This document shows positions 11,101-58,419 of a DNA stretch of 64,000 bases, in pieces. Every line of letters begins with the position of its first letter. The first letter of the stretch is position 1. Both the position numbers and the translations under genes were made by a program. The stretch covers positions 162 through 64,161 of the forward strand of contig CANHFG010000003.1 of assembly GCA_947459875.1 (NCBI GenBank). The letters are read 5' to 3'. Origin of the DNA: Ignavibacteria bacterium (GTDB taxonomy: Bacteria > Bacteroidota > Ignavibacteria > Kapaibacteriales > Kapaibacteriaceae). The notes beneath the pieces were generated by a model. The model was given only the letters and a program-made list of their open reading frames with translations. It did not search any database and was not told the DNA's origin.

Positions 11101-14100
11101 AGGGTTGACGAACCGGCAACATTCAATGTACTGTTGAATGTCGCTGCTCCATTAGCAGTGATCGAACCAGTCATCGATGTGTTGCCTGTCGCAGGGCTGA
11201 CGGTGAAGTTCGATCCACCGACCGTGAAGTTTGCGCCGGACACATCGAGACCATTGTTCGCATCAACATTCCCGCCGATGGTCACCTGGCCGCTTGCCTG
11301 AGTGAACGAACCAGTGACATTTGTAGCACCGGTCAGGGCAATGCTTCCCGTACCCGCAGCATTGATGGCGGCACCAAAGTTCGTGGCGTCGCCATCGAGC
11401 AAGAGAACCGTTGAATTGCCAGCGTTTGTCGTAAAGCGAAGATCGTTGTTGCCCATATTGACAAAACGATTGCCGGTCATCGTGGACGCCGTGTTGTTTA
11501 CCGCACCGAGGCGGACCTTTGCACTACCAGCCTCGTTATATGTCAGACCTTCATCGGCACCAACAAGCCCCGTGATCGGGAAGCGCGAAACTGCGTTCGT
11601 TGCACCGATCATGAGTACGTCTGCACCGGCCACGTTTGGTAGTCCATTCATGCTCAGTGCACCGCCACCTGCCGTGTTGATCGATACGTTGTCGCCATTA
11701 CCATCACCGGCAACGACATTGCCGCTCAGTGTTGCGCTTCCGACAACGGCCAGAGTGCTGTTGAGTGTGGCTGCTCCATTGGCTGTGAGCGTACCTGCCA
11801 TGGACGTGTTGCCATTGGCGGGATTGACAGTGAAGTTTGTTCCACCGACCGTGAGGTTGGCACCCGTGACATCAAGTCCGTTGTTCGCATCGACGTTTCC
11901 GCCGAAAGTTACCTGACCACCCGATTGCGTTACGGAATTTGTGATCGTTGTTGCGCCACCGATTGAAACCGTACCACCAGCCTGCGTGAGGTTGCCCGTC
12001 AGCGTCGTCAGACCGACGACGTCGACTCCTCCGTTAGCATCGACGTTTCCACCGAACGTCACCTGACCACCATTCTGCGTCAGCGTGCTGCTGAGCGTCG
12101 TGGCTCCCGTCACTCCAAGCGTACCGCCTACTGTAGCCGCACCACCGACGCTCAACCCAGTGCCAACCGTAGCGTTGTTCGTTGTGGTTACCGTGTTGAA
12201 CGTCACATTGCTCGTCGTGGCAATGTCCTGCGGCGTGCTGAGCGTGATGCTGCCTGCGCCGTTCGTTACCGCGATCTGGTTGGCTGTTCCCGTGATCGTT
12301 GCAATCTGAGGTGCAGCGCCAGTCGAGCCGATGAGGAGTTGGCCGTTTGTGAGAGTAACCGACTCGAGCTGGCCCGTTGCGTTCGTACGAACGGCCGCGT
12401 TAGCACCAAGTGGTGCCGCCGATGTTGAATAGATGGCCGTCGAAATCTCGAGGTTGCCCGTACCCGCATTACGAACAAGCACACCGCTTGACGATGTAGT
12501 GTTTCCAACGTTCGGGATCGCTACCGTGGCGGCGTTGATCCGCACCTGGTCGGCTGCTGCATCACCAAGTGTTGCATTTCCATTGACCGTGAGGTTACCG
12601 CCTGCTGACGAGAGAATGTTACTTGTTGGAACCCAAGCATTTGCTGCGGCATCCCAGCGAAGCGTCTGGTCCGACGTCGTTCCCGGCTGCGTCGTCGATG
12701 CGATGATGATATTTGGAGACGAGTACGTTACCGTCATCCCCGTACCGGCGACGATGTTGCCGACAGCCGGAGCCGTCGTAGCGCCCGTGCCAATGAGGAG
12801 CTGTCCGGCACCCTGCTGCGCACCTTCAACAATGCGGCCACCGCTGGATACCATTACACGGTTGTTGTTCAGAGCGGTCGATGAATTCGTACCGCCAAAC
12901 TGGATCGGAAGAACCCCTGACGAAATGCTCGATGCGTTCAGGTTTGTGATGAGCGATCCGTTCGCTGCAGGAAACTGCCCAAGGCTATTGAGCATGACGA
13001 TGTTGTTCGCTGTGTTAACGTTTACATCGCCCGCAATGAAGTTGTTGCGAAGAGCAGTGACCATGCGTGAACCCGCACCAGCTGCCGTAGAGAGCGTTGG
13101 TGATGGGTATGAGCCTGCCAGGTCGCCCGTTGCCGGACCTGACGGAGGAAGCGTCGTTGGGATAGTTCCCGGCGCAAGATCAATGACTGTCAGCGAGCCG
13201 TCGCCAACCTGCTCGGAACGCACAGCTCCGATGGCAATCTTCGGATTCGTTACTGCGAGATCGGCGATCTTAGGCGTCGTCACATTCAAGTCGAGGATCT
13301 TCGACGTTGTAACGGCGTTTGTCCGGATCAGAGGGTCCGGATAGGTTCCCGTGAGGTCGCCCCCTGCAGGAACGATGAATGGGAAGTTTGTAAGGGGCTG
13401 AACCGAGATCAAGGTAACACGACCTTTATCGTCAACCGTGATCCTTGGAACATTCAGGTTATCACCGTAGGTGCCGGCTGCGACACCTGTCGTGGAGAGC
13501 TTTGGAGTCGTCACGGCACCGTCGACGATCTTCGTCGTGGTGACAGCGTTATCGGTGATCTTCGTCGTCGTCACGGCACCATCAACAATCTTCGGAGTGG
13601 TGATCGCACCATCGGCGATCTTCGGTCCTGTAACAGCTCCAATGGCGATCGTTGGATTCGGATACGTACCCGTGAGGTCACCACCCGCTGGACCACGAGG
13701 CGGCAGCGATGTCGGAATAACACCAGGTGCGATCTTCGATGCCGTCACTGCCCCATCAACGATCTTGATCGTCGTGATGACACTGTCAACAAGTTTAGCT
13801 GTTGTAATCGTGCTATCGGCGATCTTGATCGCTGTTACAGCACCATCACGAATGTCGATCGTTGTGTTCGGGCCACTAGGGTTACCAATATCGATGGTCG
13901 ATTGAGGGCTTGCAAGGTTCTGAATCCCAACCAGCGTAATCGTCGACTCGATGTTGATCGTATCACCGGTGCGCGTTACAGCAACACCGTTTCGTCCAGC
14001 AATGACAAGGTTGCCCTCTGCCTGGTTCAACGAACGCACAAATCCGCGGGCGGATACGTTTACGCTATCGGCAATACCGGCACGTTCTGCGCGAACAGCG

Positions 14101-14471
14101 TAAGGAACAACCGCCAGTCGCGTGCGCGGGAATGGCGGCTGCCCTGCAAGGGCTGTCTCGAGGTAGGCCTGCGTGTTGAAGAAATCAACATTGGCCAGTG
14201 GCACCACGGCACCGAGATAGACGTTGAACAGTCCCTTCGTCAGGACGGTCTGCTGCGTCTCTTCCCAGAGAAGATTGCCCCCTACCGGCGCATCGTACAA
14301 GCGCATGACGAGATCATACTGGCCATCGTCGAGAGGCAAGCCATTAGGCAGCGTCAGCAAGCCTTGATAGCTTATCTGACGTTGGATCTGCGCATAGGTT
14401 GCCGTAACGGCTGTAGCCATTACGCCCACAACAAACAGCAGGGCGAGGCAAGGGCGAAGAAAACGGTTCAT
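2112..14471 (-). CDS. Giant (~4120 aa) repetitive, secreted fibre/adhesin-like protein with phage-tail-fibre-like modules
   Basis: 4127-aa ORF in the track. The likely start is ATG 14471 ([28 protein letters not shown], signal-like). The protein is rich in T/G/N/A/V, and I saw no Cys beyond the signal peptide. The N-terminus has a [21 protein letters not shown] domain, [10 protein letters not shown] motifs and 11-aa xAVTTxKIxDG repeats. There are 10 copies of a ..YNE..G..RLG....NRFVN...L.FTTNGG module. No PNPF-type T9SS CTD is visible at the C-terminus. Confidence 0.9.
   Translation of the reverse strand: [4119 protein letters not shown]
2634..3035 (-). repeat. Tandem 2 x 201-nt (67-aa) duplication inside the giant gene, with a 107-nt perfectly identical core
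   Basis: The unit [62 protein letters not shown].GT. occurs twice. Nt 2701-2807 equals 2902-3008 base for base, while the flanks differ at scattered positions. Confidence 0.9.
13176..13847 (-). repeat. Blocks of 33-nt (11-aa) periodic repeats xAVTTxKIxDG in the N-terminal part of the giant protein
   Basis: Examples are [87 protein letters not shown] and [33 protein letters not shown]. Coordinates come from my residue counting (aa ~217-440). Confidence 0.7.
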
Positions 14472-14494
14472 GGTTCTGACCATTAATGTGTTCA

Positions 14495-15058
14495 TTAGCG
14501 AATGATGGTAAGGGTCTGAGACTTGCGGAATGGTACGCCGGAGACTGTAGTCCCCTCGACCTCGTACACGTATGTTCCCGCCGGCAACGGAACCCCATAA
14601 TCGTCAACAGCTTGCAGCATTACGTCTTGCGAACCGGCCATAGAAACTTCGGCGGTGACGGTTCGCACGAGTGCGCCCAGCAAATTGTAGACTCGGATCT
14701 TTAGCCCCCCTTCAACAGGGGTGGCGAATCGAATTGTCGTATGCGTAGTAAAAGGATTCGGGAAGTTCCCGAACTCAGCAATTGACTGCTCTTCACGGTC
14801 GTTAACTCCGACCGTGCCATAGATATAAGGAACCCAGAACCCCTGGTAGAGGGCTGTGCTGTCTGAGCGCACCTGCGCCGAGATCACGGCCTGGCCGATC
14901 GTGCTCGAAATAGCCGAGCCGTTCGGGGAAGCCGATAGAAGTGACGCTCCGGATCCAATCACGGAGGATGTCAGTCTCGGTTGTGAGGTCGCTGAATGAG
15001 CTACCAAAATGAGCCCTCCCAGCAACAGCGTACAAAAACGACGCATTTGTTGCTCCAT
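14495..15058 (-). CDS. Small secreted protein made of a ..STIGQAVIS..YQGFW segment plus a T9SS-type C-terminal sorting domain
   Basis: This is track ORF 14495..15127, with likely start MEQQMRRFCTLLLGGLILVAHSATSQ (ATG 15058, or 15046). The C-terminus NFPNPFTTHTTIRF...KIRVYNLLGALV...LPAGTYVYEVEG...KSQTLTIIR fits the T9SS type-A CTD pattern. It lies immediately upstream of the giant gene. Confidence 0.7.
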   Translation of the reverse strand: MEQQMRRFCTLLLGGLILVAHSATSQPRLTSSVIGSGASLLSASPNGSAISSTIGQAVISAQVRSDSTALYQGFWVPYIYGTVGVNDREEQSIAEFGNFPNPFTTHTTIRFATPVEGGLKIRVYNLLGALVRTVTAEVSMAGSQDVMLQAVDDYGVPLPAGTYVYEVEGTTVSGVPFRKSQTLTIIR

Positions 15059-25104: not shown

Positions 25105-26103
25105 TCAGTCCTGGTATGTGGCAACGTCGCGAATAGCGCGCACACCGGAGCTCCCCTTGTCGCGACGTTCCATCGCCACAAGAGCAGAAGCATAGATCTC
25201 GCGCCAGGTGAGACCGAACTTCACCATCAGCTCTTCCGGATCGCCGGAGCCACCGAAGGAGTCCTTGACACCGACAAACTCGATCGGCACCGGAGCATTC
25301 TTTGCTGTGCATTCCGCAACTGCCCCGCCAAGTCCGGCGTGAACCTGGTGCTCTTCAGCCGTTACGATACAGCCGCATTCACGAGCGGCCTGCGTGACCG
25401 TGGCGAAGTCGAACGGCTTGACTGTGTGCACGTTAACGACGCGGGCAGATATGCCCTTCTTGGCAAGCTCCTTGGCGGCAAGAATGCTCTCCCACACCAG
25501 CGCGCCGTTGGCGATGAGCGCAACATCGGTACCATCCATGAGAACATTGGCCTTGCCAAGCTCGAACGGCGACTCCTCTGTCGTAAACATTGGTACCGGT
25601 GAACGACCGAAACGGATGTAGGCCGGTCCAATCATTTCGCCCATGGCAACGGTGGCCTTGCGAGCTTCGTAGTAATCGGCAGGGACGATCATCGTCATGT
25701 GCGGAAGCGTACGCAGAAACGCGACTTCTTCCAGCACCTGGTGCGTTGCACCATCCGGCCCAACACTGATACCGGCGTGTCCTCCGCCGATCTTGACATT
25801 TGCTTCGTTGTATGCCACCGAAATACGCAGCTGATCGGCGTTGCGCAAAGCACAGAACGCACCATACGAAGCAAAGAATGGGATCTTGCCACTGAGTGCG
25901 AGACCTGCCGCGATCGTTGTTGCGTTCTGTTCGGCGATACCAATTGAGAAGAACCGATCCGGGAACTTCTCTTTGAACAGCGAGGTCATCACCGATCCGG
26001 TGATATCCCCACCAAGTACAACAATATTGCTGTGGCGCTCGCCAAGATCAACGAGTCCGTCACCAAAGCCAAATCGCGTGGGTTTTGATCCGAGAAGGTC
26101 CAT
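25105..26103 (-). CDS. Transketolase, C-terminal (pyrimidine-binding) subunit
   Basis: 332 aa. ...RFFSIGIAEQNATTIAAGLALSGKIPFFASYGAF... is typical of split transketolase subunit B. Confidence 0.9.
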   Translation of the reverse strand: MDLLGSKPTRFGFGDGLVDLGERHSNIVVLGGDITGSVMTSLFKEKFPDRFFSIGIAEQNATTIAAGLALSGKIPFFASYGAFCALRNADQLRISVAYNEANVKIGGGHAGISVGPDGATHQVLEEVAFLRTLPHMTMIVPADYYEARKATVAMGEMIGPAYIRFGRSPVPMFTTEESPFELGKANVLMDGTDVALIANGALVWESILAAKELAKKGISARVVNVHTVKPFDFATVTQAARECGCIVTAEEHQVHAGLGGAVAECTAKNAPVPIEFVGVKDSFGGSGDPEELMVKFGLTWREIYASALVAMERRDKGSSGVRAIRDVATYQD

Positions 26104-26223
26104 CAGGTTTCAGGTTTCAGGTTTGAGGTTTGAGGTGTGGGGTGTGAGGTCACTCGTCACTCTGTCACTACGTAATTCCGTAACTCCGTAATTCCGTAAT
26201 TCCGTAATTCCGTAATTCTCTTC
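26104..26223. repeat. 120-nt mosaic of short tandem repeats that fills the whole spacer between the two transketolase half-genes
   Basis: The plus strand reads (CAGGTTT)x3, GAGGTTT, GAGGTGT, GGGGTGT, GAGGTCACTCGTCACTCTGTCACTA, then (CGTAATTC)x6 with one CGTAACTC. No non-repeat base lies between ATG 26103 and TAA 26224-26226 apart from tcttc. Confidence 0.95.
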
Positions 26224-27269: not shown

Positions 27270-29393
27270 ATGAACCGCTATACTTCTCTGGCGGCTGTCG
27301 CGCTGATAATCATTGCGACCTACCATTTCCCTGCTCATGCCCAGAAGCACGCGGAGATAGTCCAGGCAGATGCAGCGGGAACGGAATTCTGGATCGCTAT
27401 TCCACCGAACGAGATCAATCCGTTTCCGGTCGAGGGACTCGAGATCTACGTTTCCTCCGCATTCAATGCGAGTGTGGAGTTGTTTGATTTCTCCAGCGAC
27501 AGATCTACACGTTTCAATCTCAAGCCGTATGAAGTAAAGACACTGAGCGACCGTAAGGAACTCAACTGGGCAATGGAGATCCGAGATGCGGAGCTCCCCG
27601 TGCGAAAGGCGCTACGACTGACATCCGACAGGCCAATCAGTGTAAATGTCCTGAATTCAAAGGTGACGACCTCCGATGGCTTTCTAGCCATACCGACGCG
27701 CCGCTGGGGCACTGAGTACATCGCCGCCAGCTACTGGGACTTTCGCGAATTCAAACCCTGGCCAGGGGGCTTTATCATCATCGCTAAGCAACCAACGAAC
27801 GTGGACATTCTCCTGCGCGGTGCGGGACGGGATAGTGGGCGCACGACTACCGGACGAAAGATCGGCGAACAGTTCTCGGTGTTCCTCGATGAGGGTGAGG
27901 TGTACATGGTACACGGCGATGGACAGACCCGTGGTGTGTTCGACCTGACCGGCTCATTGATCACCTCTGACCAACCGATCGGCGTGATCGGCTTTCATAT
28001 GCGCACAACGATGCCGAACCTCCTGATGAACGGCAATGGTCGTAATCACCTTTGTGAGATGCTACCACCGACCAATCGCTGGGGCCGCCGATACTCTACG
28101 CTGGAGTTGAATCGAACTCGCAGAAGTGCAGGTCGTGGCGACGTTTTCCGCGTGATCGCAAAAGACGCTAACACACGCTGGAGCTGCAAGTTCTACGACA
28201 AGATCACCGGGAAGCTACTCGGTCAGCGCGGAGGCCTGATCAGCACCGCCGGCGGTTTTGCCGACGAGCAACAGGCATCAGAGCCGACGGCGATCGTCGA
28301 AGGGTTTTCCGTTTGGGAAGCCGACAAACCCTTTCTGCTCATGCAGTACTCGTGCTCGTCGTCGTGGGATGGCGACCAGTTTCTCGATCCGTTCATGATC
28401 TGCGTAACACCGCGCGAAAACTATATCTGGGAGACCACCTTTCAGACACCTACGATGGCCCAGTTCACGGTTCACAACCTGAATCTTATCGTTAATGTCG
28501 ACACCACCGACCCAACCTCGATCGTGGATAATCTCAAGTCGCTTGAGATCGATGGCGTGCCCGTCTGGAACCATCCAGAGGCGGTCAAGCCCCTTCTTCT
28601 GCAGTCGAAGATGCCAAATGGGGAGTACCATGCGGTGATAAAATTCGGTGCGGAAGCGCGTTCACACACTATCTCAAGCAACGGTCTGGTGCGTTTCGGC
28701 GGCTATCTGTATGGGTTCGGTGCGGTCGATGCCTACGGCTGGCCCGTCTCGTCGGCACTGCGAACCAACAGTCCTCGAGACACCAACCGCCCCGTCATCA
28801 GCGGCACCTCCGACAACGGCGATTACATCCTCGAGGCGACGGAACTGCGCAACAGCCCCGATCCGCCGCGGAAAGTGCCGGCGGACGCAGATCAGGTGGA
28901 AAAGGGCATTTTCCGGATCGACTCCGTGCGCGGCAAGGGCAACTTCAACTATCGTCTGGTGTCGCGCGGCGGCCCGTCCTTTCCCGAAGATCTCGCTCTT
29001 AGAAGGCATGCGTACCGCTGGGAAGTGATCGACAAGTCCAAGGATGCTCGGATGGTCTACTACGTTGTTGATCATGCCGGCAACATGACGCTCGACACCT
29101 GCACGTACGTGGCCGTGCCTGTTTCTGTTCAGGGGGCGAACCAGGAACCTAACCCCTGTGATGACAACAGGTTGCTCGTCAATGGCCGGCAGGTCCTGTT
29201 CAATGCAAGCCGATCCCCGATCGGCGGACAACTGATCATCTACGACCTGCGGGGTCAGGTCACGGCCACGGCCGACCTTGCTCGCACCGCATCTACCCCC
29301 ATCTCCGTCGGCCCGCTTGCTCCAGGCATCTATATCGCCTGCTACGATGCCGGGACTAGCAGGTGCAGCACCCGCTTTGTCATAGCCCCCTGA
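27270..29393 (+). CDS. Secreted T9SS cargo protein with an IgGFc-binding-like N-terminal domain (GTEFWIAIPPNE)
   Basis: An AGGAG Shine-Dalgarno precedes ATG 27270, and MNRYTSLAAVALIIIATYHFPAHAQ looks like a signal peptide. The C-terminus is CTD-like (QLIIYDLRGQV...LAPGIYIACYD...TRFVIAP). The first ~600 aa are roughly 70% identical by eye to the next gene. Confidence 0.8.
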   Translation: MNRYTSLAAVALIIIATYHFPAHAQKHAEIVQADAAGTEFWIAIPPNEINPFPVEGLEIYVSSAFNASVELFDFSSDRSTRFNLKPYEVKTLSDRKELNWAMEIRDAELPVRKALRLTSDRPISVNVLNSKVTTSDGFLAIPTRRWGTEYIAASYWDFREFKPWPGGFIIIAKQPTNVDILLRGAGRDSGRTTTGRKIGEQFSVFLDEGEVYMVHGDGQTRGVFDLTGSLITSDQPIGVIGFHMRTTMPNLLMNGNGRNHLCEMLPPTNRWGRRYSTLELNRTRRSAGRGDVFRVIAKDANTRWSCKFYDKITGKLLGQRGGLISTAGGFADEQQASEPTAIVEGFSVWEADKPFLLMQYSCSSSWDGDQFLDPFMICVTPRENYIWETTFQTPTMAQFTVHNLNLIVNVDTTDPTSIVDNLKSLEIDGVPVWNHPEAVKPLLLQSKMPNGEYHAVIKFGAEARSHTISSNGLVRFGGYLYGFGAVDAYGWPVSSALRTNSPRDTNRPVISGTSDNGDYILEATELRNSPDPPRKVPADADQVEKGIFRIDSVRGKGNFNYRLVSRGGPSFPEDLALRRHAYRWEVIDKSKDARMVYYVVDHAGNMTLDTCTYVAVPVSVQGANQEPNPCDDNRLLVNGRQVLFNASRSPIGGQLIIYDLRGQVTATADLARTASTPISVGPLAPGIYIACYDAGTSRCSTRFVIAP

Positions 29394-29394
29394 C

Positions 29395-29463
29395 GCAAAG
29401 TTGGCAAGGGGCAGATTTCGGGGAAAATCTGAGACCATTTTCGGAACCCGAGAGCCAACTTTT
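29395..29463 (+). terminator. Nested hairpin plus T-run between the two paralogous cargo genes (possible terminator or attenuator)
   Basis: The outer arms CAAAGTTGGC (29395-29404) and GCCAACTTT (29453-29461) are complementary and are followed by TTTTTG. The inner hairpin is CAGATTT-cgggga-AAATCTG (29411-29430). Confidence 0.35.
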
Positions 29464-29598
29464 TGTTTATTATGGTGAATGTCGAGGAAAGTGTGTTTTA
29501 ATCCGGCCGAAAAGCGCTATGTGAACAAGCGCATTGCGGCTCGGGGAAACGTCGCTACCTCGGCACCAACGTGGACATTTTTTCCGTTTGGAGGCTTC

Positions 29599-32500
29599 AT
29601 GTTCAAGCGCTTCACCATGCGTTCCGTGTTCGTTTTGTTTGTCTTACTGGGTTCGACGCTGCACCTGGCAGCTCAGCGCAAAGCTCCCACTGTCGACAAG
29701 CTGCTAAGTAGTGGCGGCCAAGGCACGGAGTTCTGGGTTGCCATCCCGCCGAATGAGATCCTGCCGTTCCCTGTTGAGGGACTTGAGATCTATGTGGCCT
29801 CAGCGTTCGACGCGAACGTCGAGCTCTTCGACTTCGCAGGCGACCGCTCAACCCGCTTCAAGCTCAAGCCTTACGAGGTGAAGACGCTGAGTGACCGCAA
29901 GGAGCTCAACTGGTCGATGGAGATCCGCGATGCCGAAATGCCTGTGCGGAAGGCTCTGCGGCTGACATCTGACAAGCCCATCTCGGTCTATGTCATTAAT
30001 TCCAAGGTAACGACCACTGACGGCTACATGGCGATCCCCACCAATGGCTGGGGACAGGACTACATCTCCGTCAGCTACTGGGACTTCCGTGAAGTCAAGC
30101 CATGGCCAGGGGGCTTTATGATCATCGCGAAGGAGCCCACAACAGTGGATATTCTCCTTCGTGGGCAGGGCAAGAATGATGCAACCACCTCGAACGGACG
30201 TCGGATCGGCGAGCGCATCTCGGTGTTCCTGGATGAGGGCGAAGTCTACATGGTTCATGGTGATGGCCAGACACGCGCTGCATTTGACCTTACCGGTTCG
30301 CTGATTCGCGCCGACAAACCTGTAGGCTTCATCAGCTTTCACATGCGCACGACCATGCCCAACCTGCTCATTAACGGCAACGGGCGAAACCACCTTTGTG
30401 AGATGCTACCCCCCATTACGGCATGGGGTAAGCGATATTCAACGGTCGAACTAAAGCGTGCGCGGCGTCTTGAAGGTCGCGGCGACGTCTTCAAGGTCGT
30501 TGCCAAGGATGATCAAACGCGCTGGACAATGAAGTACTATGACAAGACCAACGGCAAACTCCTCGGACAGAATGGCGGCCTGCTTGCAAAGGCCGGCGAT
30601 TTCGCCGACATCACGCAGGCTACTCAGCCCACGGCGATCACGGAGGGTTTCTCTGTGTGGGAAGCCAACAAGCCGATCTTCCTGATGCAGTACTCATGTT
30701 CATCAAGCTGGGATGGTGACCAGATCCTTGACCCGTTCATGTTCAACGTGACGCCGGAAGAGCAGTTCATTACGAGCACGATCTTCCAGTCGCCTACGAT
30801 GGCGCAGTTCACAAAGCACTATCTGAATCTGATCGTCAAGACAGACACATCGAACAAGAAAAAAATGGAGGAAAATCTCAAGTCACTCGAGATCGATGGC
30901 ATCCCCGTGTGGAGCGATCCGCGTGCTGAGAAGCCTTCGCTGCTCTTTACCCGCATGCCCAATGGGCTCTTCTGGGCCTCGATCGAGTTCGGCACTGACG
31001 CACGAGCCCACCGTATTTCCGGCAATGGCCTGGTAAGCTTCGGAGGGTACATCTATGGCTTCGGAGCTGTGGATGCGTACGGATGGCCTGCTGCCGCCGG
31101 CTTCCGCCCAACAACGTCCGTGGACACGCTTGCTCCGGTCATTAAGGGCGACTCCCTCTGTGGCGACTACAAGTTTGAGGCCACTGAGCTTCGTAACATA
31201 CCGGACCCGCCTCGTGAAGTTCCTATTGATACCGATCAGGTCGAGACGGGCATCGCCCTGATCGATACCGTTCCTGGGCAGAACAGCTACAACTATCGTC
31301 TGGAGTTGATCACCGATCAAATTTTCCCGCAGGCCCCTTCCTTCAAGCGGTTCAAGTATGAATGGCAGGTCATCGACAAGAGCAAGGATGCCCGGGCGAT
31401 CTATTATGTGCGTGATTTCGCTGATAACGTCACCCTTGACACGTGCTACTACTTTGCTGACAGACTTGTCTTCACACCAGACCCGCTGTTGTTCGGCAAG
31501 ATTCGACTTGGTAGCAAGAAGACACTGCCACTTACCATAAGGAACAACTCCGATGTCGAGGTGACGCTGACGGCGTCGAAAATGCTCGCCGGCACCTACT
31601 TCAAAATGGTTTCGGGTCAGATCCCTGATGGCAAGGAAGTAAAGATCCCTGCTCGCGGAAGCTATACCATCGATATCGAGTATTCCGGCACCCGTGAGAC
31701 GTCGGACGTCACCAAGGACTGGGATAAGGACACCATCCAGATCAATACCAGCTGCGGTCTGTTCAAGCATGGTATGACCGGCGTAGCCGCCATCCCGCGC
31801 ATTAAGGTCCGCGACTTTGACGCGGGCACACGCGGCCTGAATGAGAAGTTCTGCGGTCCGCTGCTGATCGAGAATCCTGGTTCCGACACACTGGTCATTA
31901 CGGCGATCACTGGTTACGACAACTCGGCATTCTCTCTTTCTGCCGGATACACTCCTGCTCTGCCGATCTCGATCCCACCAAGGGGTCGTGTTGAGCTGAA
32001 GGATGTCTGTTTTGTCAGCGATAAGATCATCGACGAGACCAAGGACGTCACCTTTGCCAACAACGGAGACGGTCCCGATTCGGTATCGAAGTGGACCGGC
32101 AACACGCAGACCCCAGGCCCTGGCATCACAGGTTATGACTGGCTGCTTCGCCGCGTGGGTACGCGTCATCCGTGGACGGTTAAGGTCTACAACACAGGCA
32201 ATCAGGAGATCATCCTGAACGACGTCAACTTCTCAACAGGCGGGAAGTACTTCCCTGCCGGGTCGGACGAGAGCAACTTCGTGTTCAAGATCGGCAACCT
32301 CATCAAGGGTGGATCGCCGGTGACCACAGCTACACTGAAGGGCGACTCGGTTGACGTTGAGGTATTCTTCCGTCCGGGCGGCGAGCAGGCCTACACCGTT
32401 GACATCACACCCGTGTGGGCTACATCACAGGATCCACGTTCTGCACGTCTCGCCGGCGAAGGCATCATTCCAAAGATCAATTCGCAGCCTATCTCACTTA

Positions 32501-33951
32501 CGTGCGCCGAAACGCCAGAGGGCGATGAGGTGCGCCGTGACGTTGTCCTGACAAACGGAGGTACCATGCCTCTGACGGTAACGGACATTCGTCTCGCGGC
32601 GGGCGCTCCTGCAGGCTACGCCCTTATCACGACGCCGACCTTCCCAGTAACGGTTGCTGCCAACGGCGGGGTTTATCCTGTAACGATTGCCTACACACGT
32701 CCGTTCGGCTTTGGCAATGCCACTTCTGTCGACCTGGAAGTTGCTCATGATGCAACGCCTGGAACGGGTGTCGATGCGACAACGCTCGTCTCGGTCGGAC
32801 CTCACACACAACGGATGTCGGTTGCCTCGTGCTCGTCACCGGACATTGCTACGATCGATCTCGATTTTGGTCGTAACCGCGCCAACTGCGACGATCCAAC
32901 GCGTGAGTTTACGATCAGCAATCCAAGCGGTTCACTCAAGCCCCTTGAGATCAAGGAGATTCGTGCCGCCGGACCGGATGCAGCCGCATTCACGATCACA
33001 CAGATTCGTGATGGCGCGGGCACTGTCATCTCTCTGCCGATCATTCTGACGGCCGGTCAGACGGCAACCGTCAGCGTCAAGTTCACGCCAACAGAACCAA
33101 ACGCCGCGCCATGGCAGAACCGCGTGTATTCGGCCCAGTATGAGATCGATGGATATGCACAAGGCGAAACCAAGCCATTCAAGTCGGTGACTTCCAAGCT
33201 CACAGGCGTTGGCTTTGTCACCCCGGTATCGATGGCTCTCGGCAACGATCTCGGTCCGACAGAAACGAAGAACCCCGGCAATGCAGTAGCATTCCGTGTT
33301 GCGGCAAATTCGGCCGACTGGAATTCTGCCGACCTTCGTTCGTTCACAGCTGATGTGATCTATGACCCCGCCACAATTTCGTTCACTGCGGGCTCGCTTC
33401 GTGCCGAAGCATCAGCCCCGGGCTGGACGATCGCCGGACCGACGATCACGACGATCTCTGCCGACCAGGCACGCATGACGTTCACCGCATCAGGTCCAGC
33501 GGCCATCCGTGCCAATGGTGATGTGTTCTCGTTCAGCGCTACCCTGCTGCTGTCAGATAAGGTCAAGGCCCTGCAGAACCTTGAGATCAACCTCGGTCGT
33601 CCGTGCTTGATCCCGTCGACGACCGGCGACTCCACGGGAATCTTCAACTGCGCTCTGACTCGCCGGGTCATCAATGTCTCGGGAGCACGCACGAAGATGG
33701 CTCCTGTTTCTCCGAACCCAGTTCGATCTGGCACTGCCACCGTCGAGTTCGGCGTCGGTATCTCAGCGCCGGTCACGATCCAGGTGATCAACGCCCAGGG
33801 TCAGGTTGTCCGCACACTGGTGAACGGTCAACTGCAATGGGGCGAGTACGACATGAGCTTCGATACGCAGGGTCTCTCGGCCGGTGCGTACTTCATCAGA
33901 ATGCAGACCGTCGAATTTGATCGCACGCAGCCGCTGATGATCCAGGACTAA
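29599..33951 (+). CDS. Large (~1450 aa) T9SS cargo protein: IgGFc-binding-like N-terminal region, multiple Ig/PapD-like (ASPM-SPD2-Hydin-type) beta-sandwich repeats, then a CTD
   Basis: A GGAGG Shine-Dalgarno precedes ATG 29599, and MFKRFTMRSVFVLFVLLGSTLHLAAQ looks like a signal peptide. It is paralogous to 27270..29393 up to ~aa 600. It then carries repeats such as LLFGKIRLGSKKTLPLTIRNNSDVEVTL. The C-terminus PNPVRSGTATVEF...IQVINAQGQVV...LSAGAYFIRMQ is a type-A CTD. Confidence 0.85.
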   Translation: MFKRFTMRSVFVLFVLLGSTLHLAAQRKAPTVDKLLSSGGQGTEFWVAIPPNEILPFPVEGLEIYVASAFDANVELFDFAGDRSTRFKLKPYEVKTLSDRKELNWSMEIRDAEMPVRKALRLTSDKPISVYVINSKVTTTDGYMAIPTNGWGQDYISVSYWDFREVKPWPGGFMIIAKEPTTVDILLRGQGKNDATTSNGRRIGERISVFLDEGEVYMVHGDGQTRAAFDLTGSLIRADKPVGFISFHMRTTMPNLLINGNGRNHLCEMLPPITAWGKRYSTVELKRARRLEGRGDVFKVVAKDDQTRWTMKYYDKTNGKLLGQNGGLLAKAGDFADITQATQPTAITEGFSVWEANKPIFLMQYSCSSSWDGDQILDPFMFNVTPEEQFITSTIFQSPTMAQFTKHYLNLIVKTDTSNKKKMEENLKSLEIDGIPVWSDPRAEKPSLLFTRMPNGLFWASIEFGTDARAHRISGNGLVSFGGYIYGFGAVDAYGWPAAAGFRPTTSVDTLAPVIKGDSLCGDYKFEATELRNIPDPPREVPIDTDQVETGIALIDTVPGQNSYNYRLELITDQIFPQAPSFKRFKYEWQVIDKSKDARAIYYVRDFADNVTLDTCYYFADRLVFTPDPLLFGKIRLGSKKTLPLTIRNNSDVEVTLTASKMLAGTYFKMVSGQIPDGKEVKIPARGSYTIDIEYSGTRETSDVTKDWDKDTIQINTSCGLFKHGMTGVAAIPRIKVRDFDAGTRGLNEKFCGPLLIENPGSDTLVITAITGYDNSAFSLSAGYTPALPISIPPRGRVELKDVCFVSDKIIDETKDVTFANNGDGPDSVSKWTGNTQTPGPGITGYDWLLRRVGTRHPWTVKVYNTGNQEIILNDVNFSTGGKYFPAGSDESNFVFKIGNLIKGGSPVTTATLKGDSVDVEVFFRPGGEQAYTVDITPVWATSQDPRSARLAGEGIIPKINSQPISLTCAETPEGDEVRRDVVLTNGGTMPLTVTDIRLAAGAPAGYALITTPTFPVTVAANGGVYPVTIAYTRPFGFGNATSVDLEVAHDATPGTGVDATTLVSVGPHTQRMSVASCSSPDIATIDLDFGRNRANCDDPTREFTISNPSGSLKPLEIKEIRAAGPDAAAFTITQIRDGAGTVISLPIILTAGQTATVSVKFTPTEPNAAPWQNRVYSAQYEIDGYAQGETKPFKSVTSKLTGVGFVTPVSMALGNDLGPTETKNPGNAVAFRVAANSADWNSADLRSFTADVIYDPATISFTAGSLRAEASAPGWTIAGPTITTISADQARMTFTASGPAAIRANGDVFSFSATLLLSDKVKALQNLEINLGRPCLIPSTTGDSTGIFNCALTRRVINVSGARTKMAPVSPNPVRSGTATVEFGVGISAPVTIQVINAQGQVVRTLVNGQLQWGEYDMSFDTQGLSAGAYFIRMQTVEFDRTQPLMIQD

Positions 33952-35800: not shown

Positions 35801-35817
35801 GACATCTGCGCCGCGTA

Positions 35818-35887
35818 GGGTGCCTTCGGCACGAGGAGGAACCTCAAACCTCACACCCCACACCCCACACCTCAAACCTCACACCCG
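35818..35887 (+). repeat. Head sequence GGGTGCCTTCGGCACGAG followed by seven heptamers (GAACCTC AAACCTC ACACCCC ACACCCC ACACCTC AAACCTC ACACCCG)
   Basis: Read directly from the sequence. The heptamers span 35839-35887. They are the reverse-complement families of those at 26125-26152. Confidence 0.9.
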
Positions 35888-35941: not shown

Positions 35942-37612
35942 ATGAATCTCGCTGATATTCGCGCTGCCCATCAAGCTACTCTCGATGCTGCCATCAAGGC
36001 CAATGCCGAGCGGACGTTTCATGCCCATTGGCCGGAAGCCCCAAGTGGGAAGATCTACGGCGAGACAGCAAACGACGAAGCGTTAGCACGTTTTCAGTCT
36101 CAGCTGAACAACCGTTTCGAACGCCTTGGTGATTCCGAAACATGGATGGGCGAGGAGATCTCTCCATACGGTTTCTCGCTTGGCATTACATATCCTGCCC
36201 TTGATGTCGAGACGCTCGTCTCGCGAGCCAGTGCAGCGCAGACGGCGTGGCAGTCCCTTACTCCGTTGGATAGGGCTGCGATCCTTGTCGAGGCTCTTGA
36301 ACGTGGAGCAAAGTCATTCTTCGAGATCGGCTATGCAACGCAGCACACCACCGGACAGGGATTCGTGATGGCCTTTCAGGCCTCGGGTCCGCATGCGTTC
36401 GATCGTGCGCTCGAAGCCACAGCGCTTGGCCTTGCTGCTCAATCCTCGTTTACTCCGGGGGTGACGTGGACAAAGCCGATGGGTAAGATCAGCGTCAGCA
36501 TCGAAAAGTCTTATCGCATCGTGCCGCGCGGCATCAATCTTGTTATCGGCTGTTCGACGTTTCCGGTGTGGAACACTGTTCCCGGGATGTTTGCCGGACT
36601 TGTCACGGGCAACAGTGTTATCGTGAAGCCCCATTCCGGTGCCGTCTATCCGATCGCGATCGTCATCGCGGCACTGCGCGATGTTCTTATTGGGCTTGGG
36701 ATGGACCCCGGCATTATCCAGATGGCTGTTGATACAGCTGCTGAGCCCCTTACACTTGACCTCGTCAAGCATCCATCGGTCGGCATCATCGATTACACCG
36801 GCGGCCCGACCTTTGGCGCCGTCGTCGAGAAGGTAGCTGCCGAGCATCGCAAGGTGGTCTTCACAGAAAAGGCGGGCGTCAACTGCGTCATCCTCGACTC
36901 GACGGATGACCTTGACAAGGCCATGGACAATCTTGCCTTCTCGCTGACGCTGTACTCGGGTCAGATGTGCACAGCCCCGCAGAACGTCTTTATATCCAAG
37001 GATGGCATGCAGGTAGGGGGCGAGCACGTTTCCGTAGATGCCGTTGCTGCAAAGCTCCGCGAAAAGATCGATGCACTGGTCTTCAATGAGAAGGCCGGTC
37101 CGGGCACGCTCGGTGCCGTGCAGAATCCTATCACCGCAGCCCGCGTTGCCGAAGCTACCGCGCTCGGCCTTGAGGTTGTTCGCAGCAGTGAAGCCATCGC
37201 GCAACCCGGCTTTGACGGTTCACGTTCGATGTCGCCCCTTGTGTTGAAGACAGACACCAAGCATGCCGACATTTATACAAAGGAGTGGTTCGGGCCGATC
37301 TCCTTCATCGTCGTGACTGACTCTTTCGAGGACTCTCTTAACGAGGTCGTCAGCAGCATTCATGAGCACGGCGCACTGAGCAGCCTTGTCTACACCACGA
37401 ATGCCCACCGTATGCAGATCGCCGAAGATGCAATTGTCGCGGTCGGCGCACCGGTGGCCTTCAACTTCAACAGCTTTGTCTGGGTAAACCAGTCGGCCGC
37501 TTTCAGCGACTTCCACGGCACAGGCTGCAACCCCGCCGGTAACGCCACTTTCGCCGACTGGCAGTTTGTTACGAACCGGTACAATGTGGTGGGCGTGCGC
37601 AAGCAGGCGTAA
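35942..37612 (+). CDS. Aldehyde dehydrogenase family protein, PaaN-like (ring-opening aldehyde dehydrogenase of phenylacetate catabolism)
   Basis: ~556 aa from ATG 35942. The N-terminus ..ERTFHAHWPEAPSGKIYGE.. and the overall length recall PaaN, and YSGQMCTAPQNVF contains the catalytic-Cys region. The family-level call is solid; the PaaN assignment is tentative. Confidence 0.65.
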   Translation: MNLADIRAAHQATLDAAIKANAERTFHAHWPEAPSGKIYGETANDEALARFQSQLNNRFERLGDSETWMGEEISPYGFSLGITYPALDVETLVSRASAAQTAWQSLTPLDRAAILVEALERGAKSFFEIGYATQHTTGQGFVMAFQASGPHAFDRALEATALGLAAQSSFTPGVTWTKPMGKISVSIEKSYRIVPRGINLVIGCSTFPVWNTVPGMFAGLVTGNSVIVKPHSGAVYPIAIVIAALRDVLIGLGMDPGIIQMAVDTAAEPLTLDLVKHPSVGIIDYTGGPTFGAVVEKVAAEHRKVVFTEKAGVNCVILDSTDDLDKAMDNLAFSLTLYSGQMCTAPQNVFISKDGMQVGGEHVSVDAVAAKLREKIDALVFNEKAGPGTLGAVQNPITAARVAEATALGLEVVRSSEAIAQPGFDGSRSMSPLVLKTDTKHADIYTKEWFGPISFIVVTDSFEDSLNEVVSSIHEHGALSSLVYTTNAHRMQIAEDAIVAVGAPVAFNFNSFVWVNQSAAFSDFHGTGCNPAGNATFADWQFVTNRYNVVGVRKQA

Positions 37613-37618
37613 GGAAGA

Positions 37619-37670
37619 GAATTACGGAATTACGGAATTACGGAAGTACGGAATTACGGAATTACGGAAC
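37619..37670 (+). repeat. (GAATTACG)x6.5 octamer array, with one GAAGTACG variant
   Basis: Read directly from the sequence. It starts 6 nt after the TAA at 37610-37612. It is the same unit, in the same sense orientation, as the array at 26171-26218. Confidence 0.95.
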
Positions 37671-37690: not shown

Positions 37691-37710
37691 GGTCGCAGCA
37701 TGCTGCGACC
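37691..37710. terminator. Perfect 20-nt palindrome GGTCGCAGCATGCTGCGACC between convergent genes (candidate bidirectional terminator stem)
   Basis: The sequence is perfectly self-complementary. It lies between a + gene ending at 37612 and a - gene ending at 37725. There is no clean U-run, so the terminator role is uncertain. Confidence 0.35.
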
Positions 37711-38879: not shown

Positions 38880-38989
38880 GCAAGTACCCCGTCGAAACAG
38901 TAGTGATTGACGGGGCGCAACATAGAGGCATGCAGTGCCAGCCTGCAAGAGCAAGAAACCTATGTTGCTTAATTTTCGACGCGCAAATT

Positions 38990-39052
38990 CAGGTTTCAGG
39001 TTTCAGGTTTCAGGTTTCAGGTTTCAGGTTTCTACTCGTGCCGAAGCCGCCC
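38990..39052 (-). repeat. (AAACCTG)x6 heptamer array (sense = minus strand) preceded by the head GGGCGGCTTCGGCACGAGTAG
   Basis: The plus strand reads (CAGGTTT)x6 at 38990-39031, then CTACTCGTGCCGAAGCCGCCC up to the stop codon at 39053-39055. Confidence 0.95.
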
Positions 39053-40078
39053 TCAAAGCCCGATCACCCACTGAACAACGGGGATCGGAAGGGGCGACCA
39101 ATCAGAGTTGTTCTCAAGATTGAGAAGGTTCCCCTTGTAGCCAGCAAAGCCAAACTGCCAGTAGGAGCCAGAACCGTACTCCCAGCGAATGGCAGGGATG
39201 ATGAAGATGTTGGAGTAGGTCGTGTACGTGCGCGAGAAACTCTGAGATGGATTGTAGTAGTCGTAATAGTCCGCTCGCCTCCAGCGTCCATCTGGGAGTA
39301 TAACTGAGCCAGAGGATGAGATCATAAACGCGTCAAGGATCAGGCGAATGTTGCGGGCGAGCTTCATAGAAACTCCCAGAGCCAGATAAGCGCGGGGCGA
39401 GGTCACTTGGCTGGTTTCGGGACGCTCAGACATATCCGGTCTTGAATACGTCTCCACCGCTAGGGTGGTTATCCCAAAGCCACCCGTGAGGGAGAAGCTC
39501 GTCGATCCCGTCATCATCGACAGCGTCAGCGTCGGCGCTGCCAGGAAGTTTCGGTCTGCAAGGCTTCCGCCCCATCCCACAATGCCCCCTGCACCGAGCC
39601 AGAGATTTTCGCCGAGTGGCATGCGGTACATTGCCGTGGCAACAATGGGTGCGCTGAACCATGAGGCAAGCAGTCCAACACTGAATCGCTCGGTCGGAAA
39701 CGCCTCCAGTGCCATACCAGCAAGATTGAACTGCAACGTCGATGTTCCCTTTGGCATCGGCAGAGCGCTTGACGTGAGCACGTAGGTGGCCGTCTGCACT
39801 GCGCCGTCCGCACTTTGATCCGACGTTGGTTGGTCAGCGATGGTGGAGATCGTTCGGACGAGATGCTTTGGCAACACCAGACGAGTCTGATCCGTGAGTA
39901 CAACAGTCAGCTCACGGGCATTCATGCTGATGATGCGACCGCTAATGATCGAACCGTCATGACGCTCAACATCAAAAATCCTGACGGTGTCCGTCCACTC
40001 AATCTGCTGGGCGATGCTCGGCATGAACGCGCCCATGAGGAAGATCACAATAAGGAGTCCGGTACGCATGCTGGTCAC
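39053..40078 (-). CDS. Hypothetical secreted/outer-membrane protein, paralog of 40075..40974
   Basis: GTG 40078 overlaps the upstream stop as GTGA; the alternative start ATG 40069 gives MRTGLLIVIFLMGAFMPSIAQQ (signal peptide). The N-terminal ~60-aa module ends in ..VLPKHLVRTIS. The rest is rich in Gly and aromatics and looks barrel-like. Confidence 0.65.
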   Translation of the reverse strand: MTSMRTGLLIVIFLMGAFMPSIAQQIEWTDTVRIFDVERHDGSIISGRIISMNARELTVVLTDQTRLVLPKHLVRTISTIADQPTSDQSADGAVQTATYVLTSSALPMPKGTSTLQFNLAGMALEAFPTERFSVGLLASWFSAPIVATAMYRMPLGENLWLGAGGIVGWGGSLADRNFLAAPTLTLSMMTGSTSFSLTGGFGITTLAVETYSRPDMSERPETSQVTSPRAYLALGVSMKLARNIRLILDAFMISSSGSVILPDGRWRRADYYDYYNPSQSFSRTYTTYSNIFIIPAIRWEYGSGSYWQFGFAGYKGNLLNLENNSDWSPLPIPVVQWVIGL

Positions 40079-57741: not shown

Positions 57742-57846
57742 GTACCCAGTACCCAGTACCCAGTACCCAGTACCTAGTACCCAGTACCCAGTACCCAGTA
57801 CCCAGTACCCAGTACCCAGTACCTAGTACCCAGTACCCAGTACTCT
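57742..57846. repeat. ~14.5 tandem heptamers GTACCCA (sense strand TGGGTAC), with two GTACCTA variants
   Basis: I counted unit by unit. Units 5 (57770-57776) and 12 (57819-57825) carry the C-to-T variant. The array overlaps the 3' end of the gmhA-like ORF. Confidence 0.95.
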
Positions 57847-58419
57847 GGCCTCGATCATCTCACACCACACATGTCCGATCAGAATATGGCACTCCTGAAT
57901 GCGGGCCGTGACAGCAGACGGGACGATTACTGAGTGATTGCAGAGCTTTGCCAAAACGCCGCCGGTTCCCCCGAGCAGGCCGATGGTGCGAACACCTCGT
58001 TGGCGGGCTTCTTCCACAGCCATGACAACATTCCGGGAGGTACCGCTCGTGGAGATTGCAATCAGTACGTCACCCGATGTGCCAAAAGCTTCTACCTGAC
58101 GGCTGAAGACCCGGTCGAACCCGTAGTCATTGCCGCCTGCCGTGAGTATGCTGCTGTCGGTTGAAAGGGCAAGCGCTTTGATAGCACGGCGATTGACATC
58201 GCTCTTGAGCCGGACCACCAGCTCAGCAGCGATATGCTGACTATCGGCCGCACTGCCGCCGTTACCGCAGAGCATGATCAGGCCGTTGCTCATAGCGCAG
58301 TCGGCCAAAAGCTGACCGCACGTATGGATTGCATCCAAGTGCTGCTCCAACAAGCGCGTCTTGGTATCGATGGACTCGCGTAGAATGCCCTCGATCATGT
58401 CGTTAGTCATTGCTGCCAT
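57823..58419 (-). CDS. gmhA: SIS-domain phosphoheptose isomerase
   Basis: ...LIMLCGNGGSAADSQHIAAELV... and ..DVLIAISTSGTSRNV.. are GmhA/DiaA-type motifs. The last 6 codons (VLGTGY) and the TAG stop are encoded by the heptamer array. Confidence 0.75.
   Translation of the reverse strand: MAAMTNDMIEGILRESIDTKTRLLEQHLDAIHTCGQLLADCAMSNGLIMLCGNGGSAADSQHIAAELVVRLKSDVNRRAIKALALSTDSSILTAGGNDYGFDRVFSRQVEAFGTSGDVLIAISTSGTSRNVVMAVEEARQRGVRTIGLLGGTGGVLAKLCNHSVIVPSAVTARIQECHILIGHVWCEMIEARVLGTGY

Follow-up and report, generated by a model that had tools for sequence, protein, structure and literature searches.

A repeat-filled linker between two transketolase genes

We analyzed a 64,000-nt stretch of DNA (hereafter, the window) from an uncultured bacterium of the Kapaibacteriaceae (GenBank assembly GCA_947459875.1, contig CANHFG010000003.1), focusing on the spacer between tktN and tktC, the minus-strand genes for the N- and C-terminal halves of a split transketolase (Table 1). 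This tkt spacer comprises 120 nt (26104-26223) and consists, on its sense (minus) strand, wholly of 7- and 8-nt tandem units plus a GAAGA lead-in. In the sense direction, the octamers run GAATTACG x4, GAGTTACG, GAATTACG and are followed by three TGAC-type units and six C/A-rich heptamers of the form [TC][CG]A[AC]ACC, after which TG leads into the ATG of tktC. Read in an alternative register, the C/A-rich series becomes ACACCYC, AAACCTC and (AAACCTG)x3. Where repeat units are written in RNA letters, they take the forms (AAACCUG)n and (GAAUUACG)n.

Table 1. Transketolase genes, components of the tkt spacer and further repeat arrays in the window (ORF, open reading frame; TRF, Tandem Repeats Finder)
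Feature	Positions	Strand	Basis or context
tktN, transketolase N-terminal (thiamine-diphosphate-binding) half, 299 aa	26224..27123	-	Stop TAA 26224-26226; ORF; Pfam Transketolase_N / DXP_synthase_N on the identical gene in L200
tktC, transketolase C-terminal half, 332 aa	25105..26103	-	ATG 26101-26103; ORF; Pfam Transket_pyr + Transketolase_C
Purine-rich lead-in GAAGA directly 3' of the tktN stop	26219..26223	-	Sequence
Octamer array GAATTACG x6, one unit being GAGTTACG	26171..26218	-	TRF period 8, 6.0 copies, 95% matches
Three TGAC-type units TAGTGACA GAGTGAC GAGTGACC	26148..26170	-	Sequence and TRF
C/A-rich heptamer series TCACACC CCACACC TCAAACC TCAAACC TGAAACC TGAAACC + TG, abutting the ATG	26104..26147	-	Sequence and TRF
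ACACCYC/AAACCTC heptamer array, 6.4 copies	35841..35885	+	Sense orientation, between co-directional Cys_Met_Meta_PP and aldehyde dehydrogenase genes; preceded by GAGGAGGA
(GAATTACG) x6.4	37619..37669	+	Starts 6 nt after the aldehyde dehydrogenase stop; convergent spacer
(AAACCTG) x6.4	38988..39032	-	Sense orientation; 20 nt from the stop of upstream gene 39053-40078 and ~109 nt from the next gene, whose probable ATG is at 38879
(TGGGTAC) x14.6	57742..57843	-	Sense orientation; overlaps the last 21 nt of SIS-domain gene 57823-58419; ends 55 nt before the DUF2911 gene ATG

TRF returned four overlapping arrays in the tkt spacer, with periods of 7, 7, 7 and 8. Across the 64-kb window, it reported seven rows of period 7-8 and at least three copies (357 nt in total, 3-15 copies, 86-100% matches), whereas 30 dinucleotide-preserving shuffles averaged 0.1 such arrays and never exceeded 1. 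A preliminary description, made from the sequence alone, had presented the spacer as a short-tandem-repeat mosaic, and these data confirm it exactly as described. Its four families really form two mutationally connected series linked stepwise by single changes: GAATTACG to GAGTTACG to GAGTGAC, and ACACCCC to ACACCTC to AAACCTC to AAACCTG. TRF also found arrays at 35.8, 37.6 and 39.0 kb, where the same unit families had been said to recur, and a further one at 57.7 kb. All five tracts in the 64 kb lie in spacers or overlap just the final codons of a gene.

Independent assemblies carry two length alleles

Alleles of the spacer were sought in contigs encoding exactly the same TktC protein and in one metagenome scan. 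Allele A, the 120-nt form of the window, recurs in L200/L218 (ERZ27263785) and L203/L220 (ERZ28613002), two independent assemblies from different samples. Allele B measures 195 nt and is present in four assemblies, L201/L219 (5806-6000 in L201), L202/L222, L204/L221 and L327, with JGI 3300061645, GCA_046306255.1, GCA_046306075.1 and Ga0209990 as sources; Ga0209990 was the sole new contig added by the metagenome scan. Allele B contains 11 octamers (a mix of GAAGTACG and GAATTACG) and 11 C/A heptamers around an unchanged set of three TGAC units, and exceeds allele A by 40 nt (five octamers) plus 35 nt (five heptamers). Within each allele, octamers and C/A heptamers are equally numerous (6 and 6 in A, 11 and 11 in B), an equality that was not found in other species and is probably coincidental.

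The tktC genes of strains A and B differ at 6-7 of 999 nt (0.7%), and each allele is tied to its own set of tktC single-nucleotide polymorphisms (SNPs). Only two alleles were seen, each unchanged across three to four independent samples. Two stable, SNP-linked alleles argue for changes of the tract on the timescale of lineages rather than populations, and rapid phase variation is not supported. Copy-number variation, for which the preliminary description had proposed a test, was, thus, found between strains (120 versus 195 nt), and its proposal of a hypervariable contingency locus was not supported. Across the ~19 kb of synteny aligned between the strains, the sole non-codon indels longer than 1 nt were the 40- and 35-nt differences in the tkt spacer and a 7-nt difference at 35.8 kb, where the sister strain has one ACACCCC unit fewer. 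For the 37.6, 39.0 and 57.7 kb arrays, exact-protein look-ups for strain B gave strain-A contigs only.

Logan short-read contigs break within the arrays, and the units at their ends agree with the respective allele; the proximal 14-44 nt of the allele A spacer are present in such contigs. The possibility of an assembly artifact, which had been flagged for checking, is countered by the reproduction of the tract in independent assemblies from different samples. At every array locus checked, Logan contigs of the species (L205-L209, L211-L213, L215-L217, L322-L326) end in 7-8-mer arrays, with examples that are 1.3 kb long and carry one gene with arrays on both sides. Because contigs end in them, the arrays appear to be a major cause of fragmented assemblies in this lineage.

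Spacer turnover among relatives

A search with the TktC protein provided 80 related loci, the best of which, at 99% and 96-97% amino acid identity, come from metagenome-assembled genomes. Many of these relatives are labeled Candidatus Kapaibacterium or Ignavibacteria, and others bear generic or apparently misassigned names; NCBI taxonomy places the genus Kapaibacterium in the Bacteroidota, FCB group. Comparing the tktN-tktC junction across them, as the preliminary description had suggested, revealed different arrays in sister species and short, non-repeat spacers farther out. In sister species (96-97% TktC identity, 82-91% nucleotide identity), the tkt spacer differs in every one. The spacers of L002-L009 contain two to eight AAACCYG units (AAACCTG or AAACCCG), AAGTACG/AATGACG, an inverted GAATTACG module or GAGTGAC x30, with the inverted module of L007 including its lead-in. 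The order of purine-rich units, ACACCYC, AAACCYC, AAACCTG and ATG is nevertheless kept in the sister species. Other families have expanded in L025, L026, L029 and L034 (TTACTAG, TAACTCG, AGTAGCG and ACGGACG), the first three of these loci carrying TTACTAG/TAACTCG.

Relatives at 86-93% TktC identity mostly have spacers of 13-63 nt without repeats, and in L044 the tkt half-genes overlap. These data agree with the earlier view that the spacer of the window is added or expanded material. For L010-L024, the non-repeat spacers measure 18-63 nt (mostly 18-44 nt) and read, for example, ...AAAACCTGACAC...CTGAACCTCA-ATG. That of L012 (...CCAAAACCTGACAC...CTGAACCTCA-ATG) holds single copies of the units. 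Such single-copy seeds in repeat-free relatives suggest that the C/A-rich half of the array grew in situ from an ancestral leader.

Split tkt genes had been assumed to be normally adjacent, which does not apply to the deep Kapaibacteria clade. There (L038-L080, for example, L039:9341-9979), a 212-aa ORF with a hydrophobic, lipoprotein-like N terminus lies in a gap of ~620-730 nt between tktN and tktC. A Pfam search with this ORF gave no matches. Its position between the halves indicates that these are not tightly coupled in this family. At another locus, L009:9733-10000, (GAGTGAC) x30 and C/A heptamers precede tktC, but the ORF on their other side is unrelated and divergent, and no tktN is present in the 10 kb upstream; here, the tkt gene pair appears to be broken at the array. 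Our ORF heuristic gave a spurious 181-aa ORF across this GAGTGAC x30 tract.

Period-7 arrays are dense in one lineage and concentrate at gene boundaries

A TRF census covered 1.31 Mb of DNA from Kapaibacteria, which had been selected through tktC rather than for its repeats. Period 7 was by far the commonest repeat class. Arrays of period 7-8 reached 8.7 per 100 kb in near relatives, 6.6 in the middle group and 0.4 in the deep clade, a contrast that points to proliferation within one lineage; the sampled density would amount to a few hundred arrays per genome. Among the 31 intergenic arrays assignable to a spacer type, 27 were in co-directional spacers, four in convergent and none in divergent ones, as against about seven divergent cases expected from spacer length (all gene-context counts are indicative). 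Many of the census arrays begin on or within a few nucleotides of a stop codon or finish at an ATG. Occurrence of the units well beyond chance and their placement at gene boundaries, for which the preliminary description had proposed a genome-wide scan, are supported by these counts and by the shuffles. We considered 'G-rich after stop, C-rich before start' as a general rule and rejected it, as the census list, inspected by eye, displays this as a trend only.

The unit adjoining the tktC start also has a wide distribution: (AAACCTG)3 occurs across phyla, in Flavobacterium, Pyrinomonadaceae, Desulfobacterales, Planctomycetes, Verrucomicrobia and Leptolyngbya. In co-directional spacers across phyla, (AAACCTG)n was found 35 times in sense and 21 times in antisense orientation, a weak sense bias. 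An apparent excess of antisense (AAACCTG)n in coding regions was dismissed as an artifact because the sense strand has TGA in all three frames.

The octamer family occupies many loci

A collection scan for (GAATTACG)3 identified 97 loci, with up to 11 sampled loci in single Kapaibacterium genomes. When the upstream gene lay on the same strand, 19 of 31 arrays started between -18 and +8 nt from its stop codon; several other arrays had their 5' end 2-14 nt from an opposite-strand ATG. The 8 nt located 5' of 44 arrays in Kapaibacterium genomes were 71% purine, with GAAGA and GGAGGA recurring. Both octamer arrays in the window have a TAAG(G)AAGA lead-in before GAATTACG, the second one through TAAGGAAGA at 37610-37618, which matches the lead-in of the tkt spacer. 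On the 3' side, GAATTACG arrays are neighbored by ACACCYC, GTCTCTC, CAGTCAT or GAGTTACT arrays or by REP-like hairpins. The order of octamers followed by ACACCYC recurs in a convergent spacer (L226, L257 and L273); with no start codon present, the C/A array cannot act as a 5' leader there.

Two REP-like hairpin elements adjoin arrays in related genomes, GTAGGGGCGAGCCTAYGTGCTCGCCC and GTCATTCCCGCGAAAGCGGGAATCC, at loci L240, L258, L275, L285, L287 and L315 and at L227, L244, L276, L283, L290 and L294. GTCATTCCCGCGAAAGCGGGAATCC, reversed, fills the tkt spacers of L003, L004 and L006. Searching the 64-kb window for the REP-like hairpin TCCCGCGAAAGCGGGA gave no match, and neither REP-like element is present there. 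Together, REP-like hairpins and arrays give spacers the look of mosaic intergenic elements. In Sphingomonadales, Hyphomicrobiales, Methylocystis, Nitrosomonas, Thiohalocapsa and other Proteobacteria (L236, L239, L243, L247, L248, L256, L261, L263, L268, L269, L277, L279, L280, L292, L296, L299 and L316), short GAATTACG runs are embedded in another repeated element, GGAATTACGGTGACAGTGCAYT or ...GTGACAGTTTACTAAA. In the window spacer, GAATTACG likewise stands beside GTGACAG (GGAATTACGTAGTGACAG), through coincidence or an origin shared with the proteobacterial element.

Expression signals at the tkt spacer

Scans of the tkt spacer for sigma-70-type promoters and for intrinsic terminators returned none, and tktN and tktC are likely co-transcribed. 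Folding compared to shuffles (z = +0.57) gave no excess RNA structure and no hairpin like that of the Haemophilus influenzae hmw locus, and an Rfam search of window positions 20-60 kb yielded one tRNA only, with nothing in the tkt spacer. We found no evidence for RNA structure or for a protein-binding array, the latter being one of the roles previously considered. The description of the array as the tktC 5' leader lacking a Shine-Dalgarno (SD) sequence was borne out, but the absence of this signal is ordinary in the clade: a 4-nt SD-like motif is present in 51 of 160 upstream regions (68% without), versus 12% in control windows. Clade leaders are typically C/A-rich and G-poor. As most of them have no SD sequence, the SD-less tktC leader represents the norm rather than an anomaly.

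A tolerated expansion as the preferred explanation

In our assessment, the tkt spacer is best explained, with a probability of roughly 0.6, as a co-transcribed untranslated linker that was filled by runaway expansion of 7- and 8-nt repeats, a mutational by-product tolerated by the cell. Replication slippage or unequal exchange would lengthen and shorten the arrays, and point mutation would create unit variants that are then amplified. Arrays would persist where harmless, within operons and after stop codons, and only rarely in divergent spacers. Selection, acting mainly on how the arrays are oriented and composed, would keep the ATG-proximal part C/A-rich, G-poor and free of structure, and tktC would be translated by independent initiation without an SD sequence, as are most genes of the clade. 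Ectopic recombination or gene conversion between arrays might spread units, especially GAATTACG, among loci, although this step is a guess. We infer no dedicated function for the array itself. Several points weigh against this explanation. The C/A-rich family is on the sense strand in 9:0 cases in co-directional spacers (~6 independent loci), and AACCTG directly 5' of the tktC ATG is kept in eight of nine sister-species loci, both of which would fit a translational role. Up to 11 octamer loci per genome with similar purine-rich lead-ins need a dispersal step beyond in situ slippage. Finally, the gene contexts in the censuses come from a crude start-trimming ORF heuristic and many loci are orthologous, so that the counts overstate independence.

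The 9:0 orientation and the retention of AACCTG at the ATG amid turnover of the remaining spacer argue for viewing the C/A heptamers as a selected translation leader. In that case, they would bind the ribosome (for example, as a standby site for ribosomal protein S1) or a post-transcriptional regulator, replace the SD sequence and set the TktC:TktN output. The unstructured state of the tkt leader is compatible with this role, and precedent exists in Beggiatoaceae and Flexibacter, along with a preprint hint for Nostoc recF and recO. We nevertheless regard it as improbable, although worth keeping in mind. The same C/A arrays follow octamers in the same order between convergent genes, ~109 nt separate the AAACCTG array at 39.0 kb from its start codon and the cross-phylum sense bias of (AAACCTG)n is only 35:21. 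Moreover, strains differ approximately twofold in copy number ahead of an essential enzyme, and relatives manage with 13-63-nt non-repeat leaders. A contingency locus, phase-variable or rheostat-like, in which quick and reversible gain or loss of units tunes tktC within populations as at H. influenzae hmw, seems very unlikely to us. Strain lengths do differ by whole units, short-read contigs break inside arrays and the hmw (ATCTTTC)n 5' untranslated region (UTR) sets a precedent (PMC12721329). However, contig breaks are expected at any repeat, and the two alleles are constant in three to four samples each and come with their own tktC SNPs (0 versus 6-7 of 999 nt). In addition, the gene serves central metabolism rather than a surface or restriction function, and an hmw-like hairpin partner is missing. 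That the tract is a collapsed or chimeric assembly has a negligible chance of being true: repeats do break short-read assemblies, but the full tracts of both alleles are identical from independent samples and assemblers, and Logan contig ends agree with the proximal units of each.

Dispersal of the octamers could instead reflect mobile or templated insertion. A module consisting of octamers and a purine-rich lead-in would then be copied, in one or the other orientation and by an enzymatic or repair-coupled mechanism, to gene boundaries, the tkt spacer among them, and would resemble Neisseria intergenic mosaic elements or small dispersed repeats. In favor of this idea, several Kapaibacterium genomes carry GAATTACG arrays at as many as 11 sampled loci each, and the 5' ends of the arrays sit at a stop codon or an opposite-strand ATG, with GAAGA/GGAGGA lead-ins recurring. 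It also draws on the shared TAAG(G)AAGA-GAATTACG of both window copies, on the inversion of module plus lead-in at the same junction in L007 and on the REP-like hairpins that often adjoin arrays. We consider it doubtful: target-site duplications, terminal inverted repeats and an associated gene were not seen, the lead-in may represent an edge unit that has decayed, repeat-free relatives contain plausible single-copy seeds of the C/A half and array-array ectopic recombination gives the same picture without mobile machinery. Similarly speculative is a more far-reaching scenario in which the ordered polar mosaics (gene boundary, purine-rich lead-in, octamers and further arrays or REP-like hairpins) would constitute a bacterial satellite-DNA system with concerted evolution, its units being copied among loci by a templated mechanism and its composition being used as a modular leader or trailer with a post-transcriptional role. 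Tolerated repeat expansion in a co-transcribed linker remains the explanation that we favor.

How 5-11-nt intergenic repeats function and spread is a long-standing question, for which this clade offers a dense natural dataset. Its assets are a ~20-fold expansion over deeper relatives, ordered mosaics at gene ends and a natural allele pair (120 versus 195 nt) in an essential two-gene operon. In practical terms, these bacteria are widespread in freshwater and wastewater, and their short-read assemblies break at the arrays. Annotators should expect ORF artifacts made of arrays, and arrays provide the stop codon and C-terminal residues of at least one gene.

Further arrays and neighboring features in the window

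The gene in question encodes the SIS-domain protein at 57.7 kb, whose final six residues (VLGTGY) and TAG stop are encoded by TGGGTAC units (57823-57843), the stop deriving from the variant TAGGTAC. Since its end is made of array units, the array has overrun or replaced the original 3' end of this gene. The octamer array at 37619-37669 has an ortholog in L270. In the same convergent spacer, a perfect 20-nt palindrome, GGTCGCAGCATGCTGCGACC (37691-37710), lies 3' of the array, is kept in L270 and L272 and may function as a bidirectional terminator without a T-run. The interval 35815-35840, between the Cys_Met_Meta_PP stop and the array at 35.8 kb, contains a small stem-loop closed by TTCG (GTGCC-TTCG-GCAC) and then GAGGAGGA, an SD-like run of purines of the type that leads into the octamer arrays.

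Elsewhere in the window, positions 2112-14495 contain a 4127-aa ORF with internal periodic repeats of 201, 60, 30 and 18 nt, and positions 27270-33951 encode two large surface proteins of the IgGFc_binding / Por_Secre_tail (type IX secretion) type. The genes for the latter are the most SNP-dense between both strains, with up to 175 SNPs per kb bin.

Comparison with known repeat classes

The tkt tract belongs to the known class of 5-11-nt intergenic simple sequence repeats. Consistent with that class, the window arrays consist of head-to-tail units beyond chance expectation, as determined by TRF and shuffles. They are non-coding and dispersed over many loci in few unit families (five tracts per 64 kb; up to 11 octamer loci), and close strains differ in them by entire units (+5 octamers, +5 heptamers and -1 heptamer).

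Dispersed heptamer arrays were reportedly described by Mazel et al. in 1990 as the STRR of heterocystous cyanobacteria. STRR are intergenic, belong to few unit families, occupy many loci and vary in copy number between strains. The Kapaibacterium arrays resemble them in all of these respects but occur in another phylum, have other units and include a prominent octamer family. Strict STRR membership was rejected, as strict STRR are cyanobacterial sequences, and here the host is Kapaibacterium (Bacteroidota) and the units are GAATTACG, AGTGACN, ACACCYC, AAACCTG and TGGGTAC rather than STRR1-3. The STRR analogy drawn in the preliminary description was, thus, apt, but its statement that such arrays are not described in an FCB-type genome was wrong, given the five Bacteroidetes covered by MacGregor 2015 (PMC4679880).

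That study reports TAACTGA-type heptamer direct repeats in Beggiatoaceae, cyanobacteria and the five Bacteroidetes. Forward arrays abut start codons without SD sequences, a translational role is proposed for the TAACTGA repeats and close Cyanothece strains differ by 7-nt indels. Gramella, Aequorivita and Elizabethkingia have multi-heptamer intergenic mosaics that are missing from close relatives, and contigs end in repeats (PMC4679880). The arrays analyzed here share the forward heptamers that abut a start codon without an SD sequence, the indels in 7-nt steps, the multi-heptamer mosaics and the contig ends in repeats. In contrast, their unit sequences differ, with no TAACTGA in Kapaibacterium arrays, and many of them lie at stop codons or in convergent spacers, so that a start-codon role is not general. 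Forward, start-proximal orientation applies to the tkt spacer and the C/A family (9:0 in co-directional spacers) but not to the octamer family or the copies in convergent spacers.

Rehm et al. 2015 (PMC4692102) described the quadruplex-forming GGGNATC / GGGGAYT heptamers of Xanthomonas and Nostoc, which are located between aligned ORFs and rarely between divergent ones, with the G-rich strand in sense after stops or in antisense before starts. These positional rules apply to Kapaibacteria as a trend; they describe (TGGGTAC)14 at 57.7 kb as well as (ACACCCC)n ahead of tktC. However, quadruplex formation is impossible for most Kapaibacterium units (GAATTACG, AAACCTG and AGTGACG), and arrays of four units are not preferred. 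At least four tracts of three or more G with short loops, as needed for a G-quadruplex, occur only in the (TGGGTAC)14 array and in the allele B tkt spacer (five consecutive ACACCCC). A quadruplex in the window tkt spacer was rejected, as this has a single C4 tract. The (ATCTTTC)n repeat in the H. influenzae hmw 5' UTR is likewise a length-variable heptamer array in a 5' leader. It is, however, a single-locus phase-variation device that needs a long hairpin and RNase III (PMC12721329), and the tkt spacer differs from it in the absence of a hairpin, the housekeeping nature of the gene, the stability of its alleles and the hundreds of loci implied by the sampled density.

A further close counterpart is the class of long simple sequence repeats with 5-11-nt units (LSSR5-11) of Mrazek, Guo and Shah 2007, for which, as summarized in PMC4679880, heptamers are the commonest unit length and a slippage model applies. 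Both comprise tandem 7-8-nt units with a predominance of heptamers, in many intergenic arrays of a free-living non-pathogen, and are put down to slippage rather than to a dedicated function. The Kapaibacteriaceae were outside that survey, and their arrays differ in forming ordered multi-family mosaics that extend from stop codon to start codon. The comparison, thus, reveals no new type of mechanism; new are the lineage and the high density at which these repeats occur in it.

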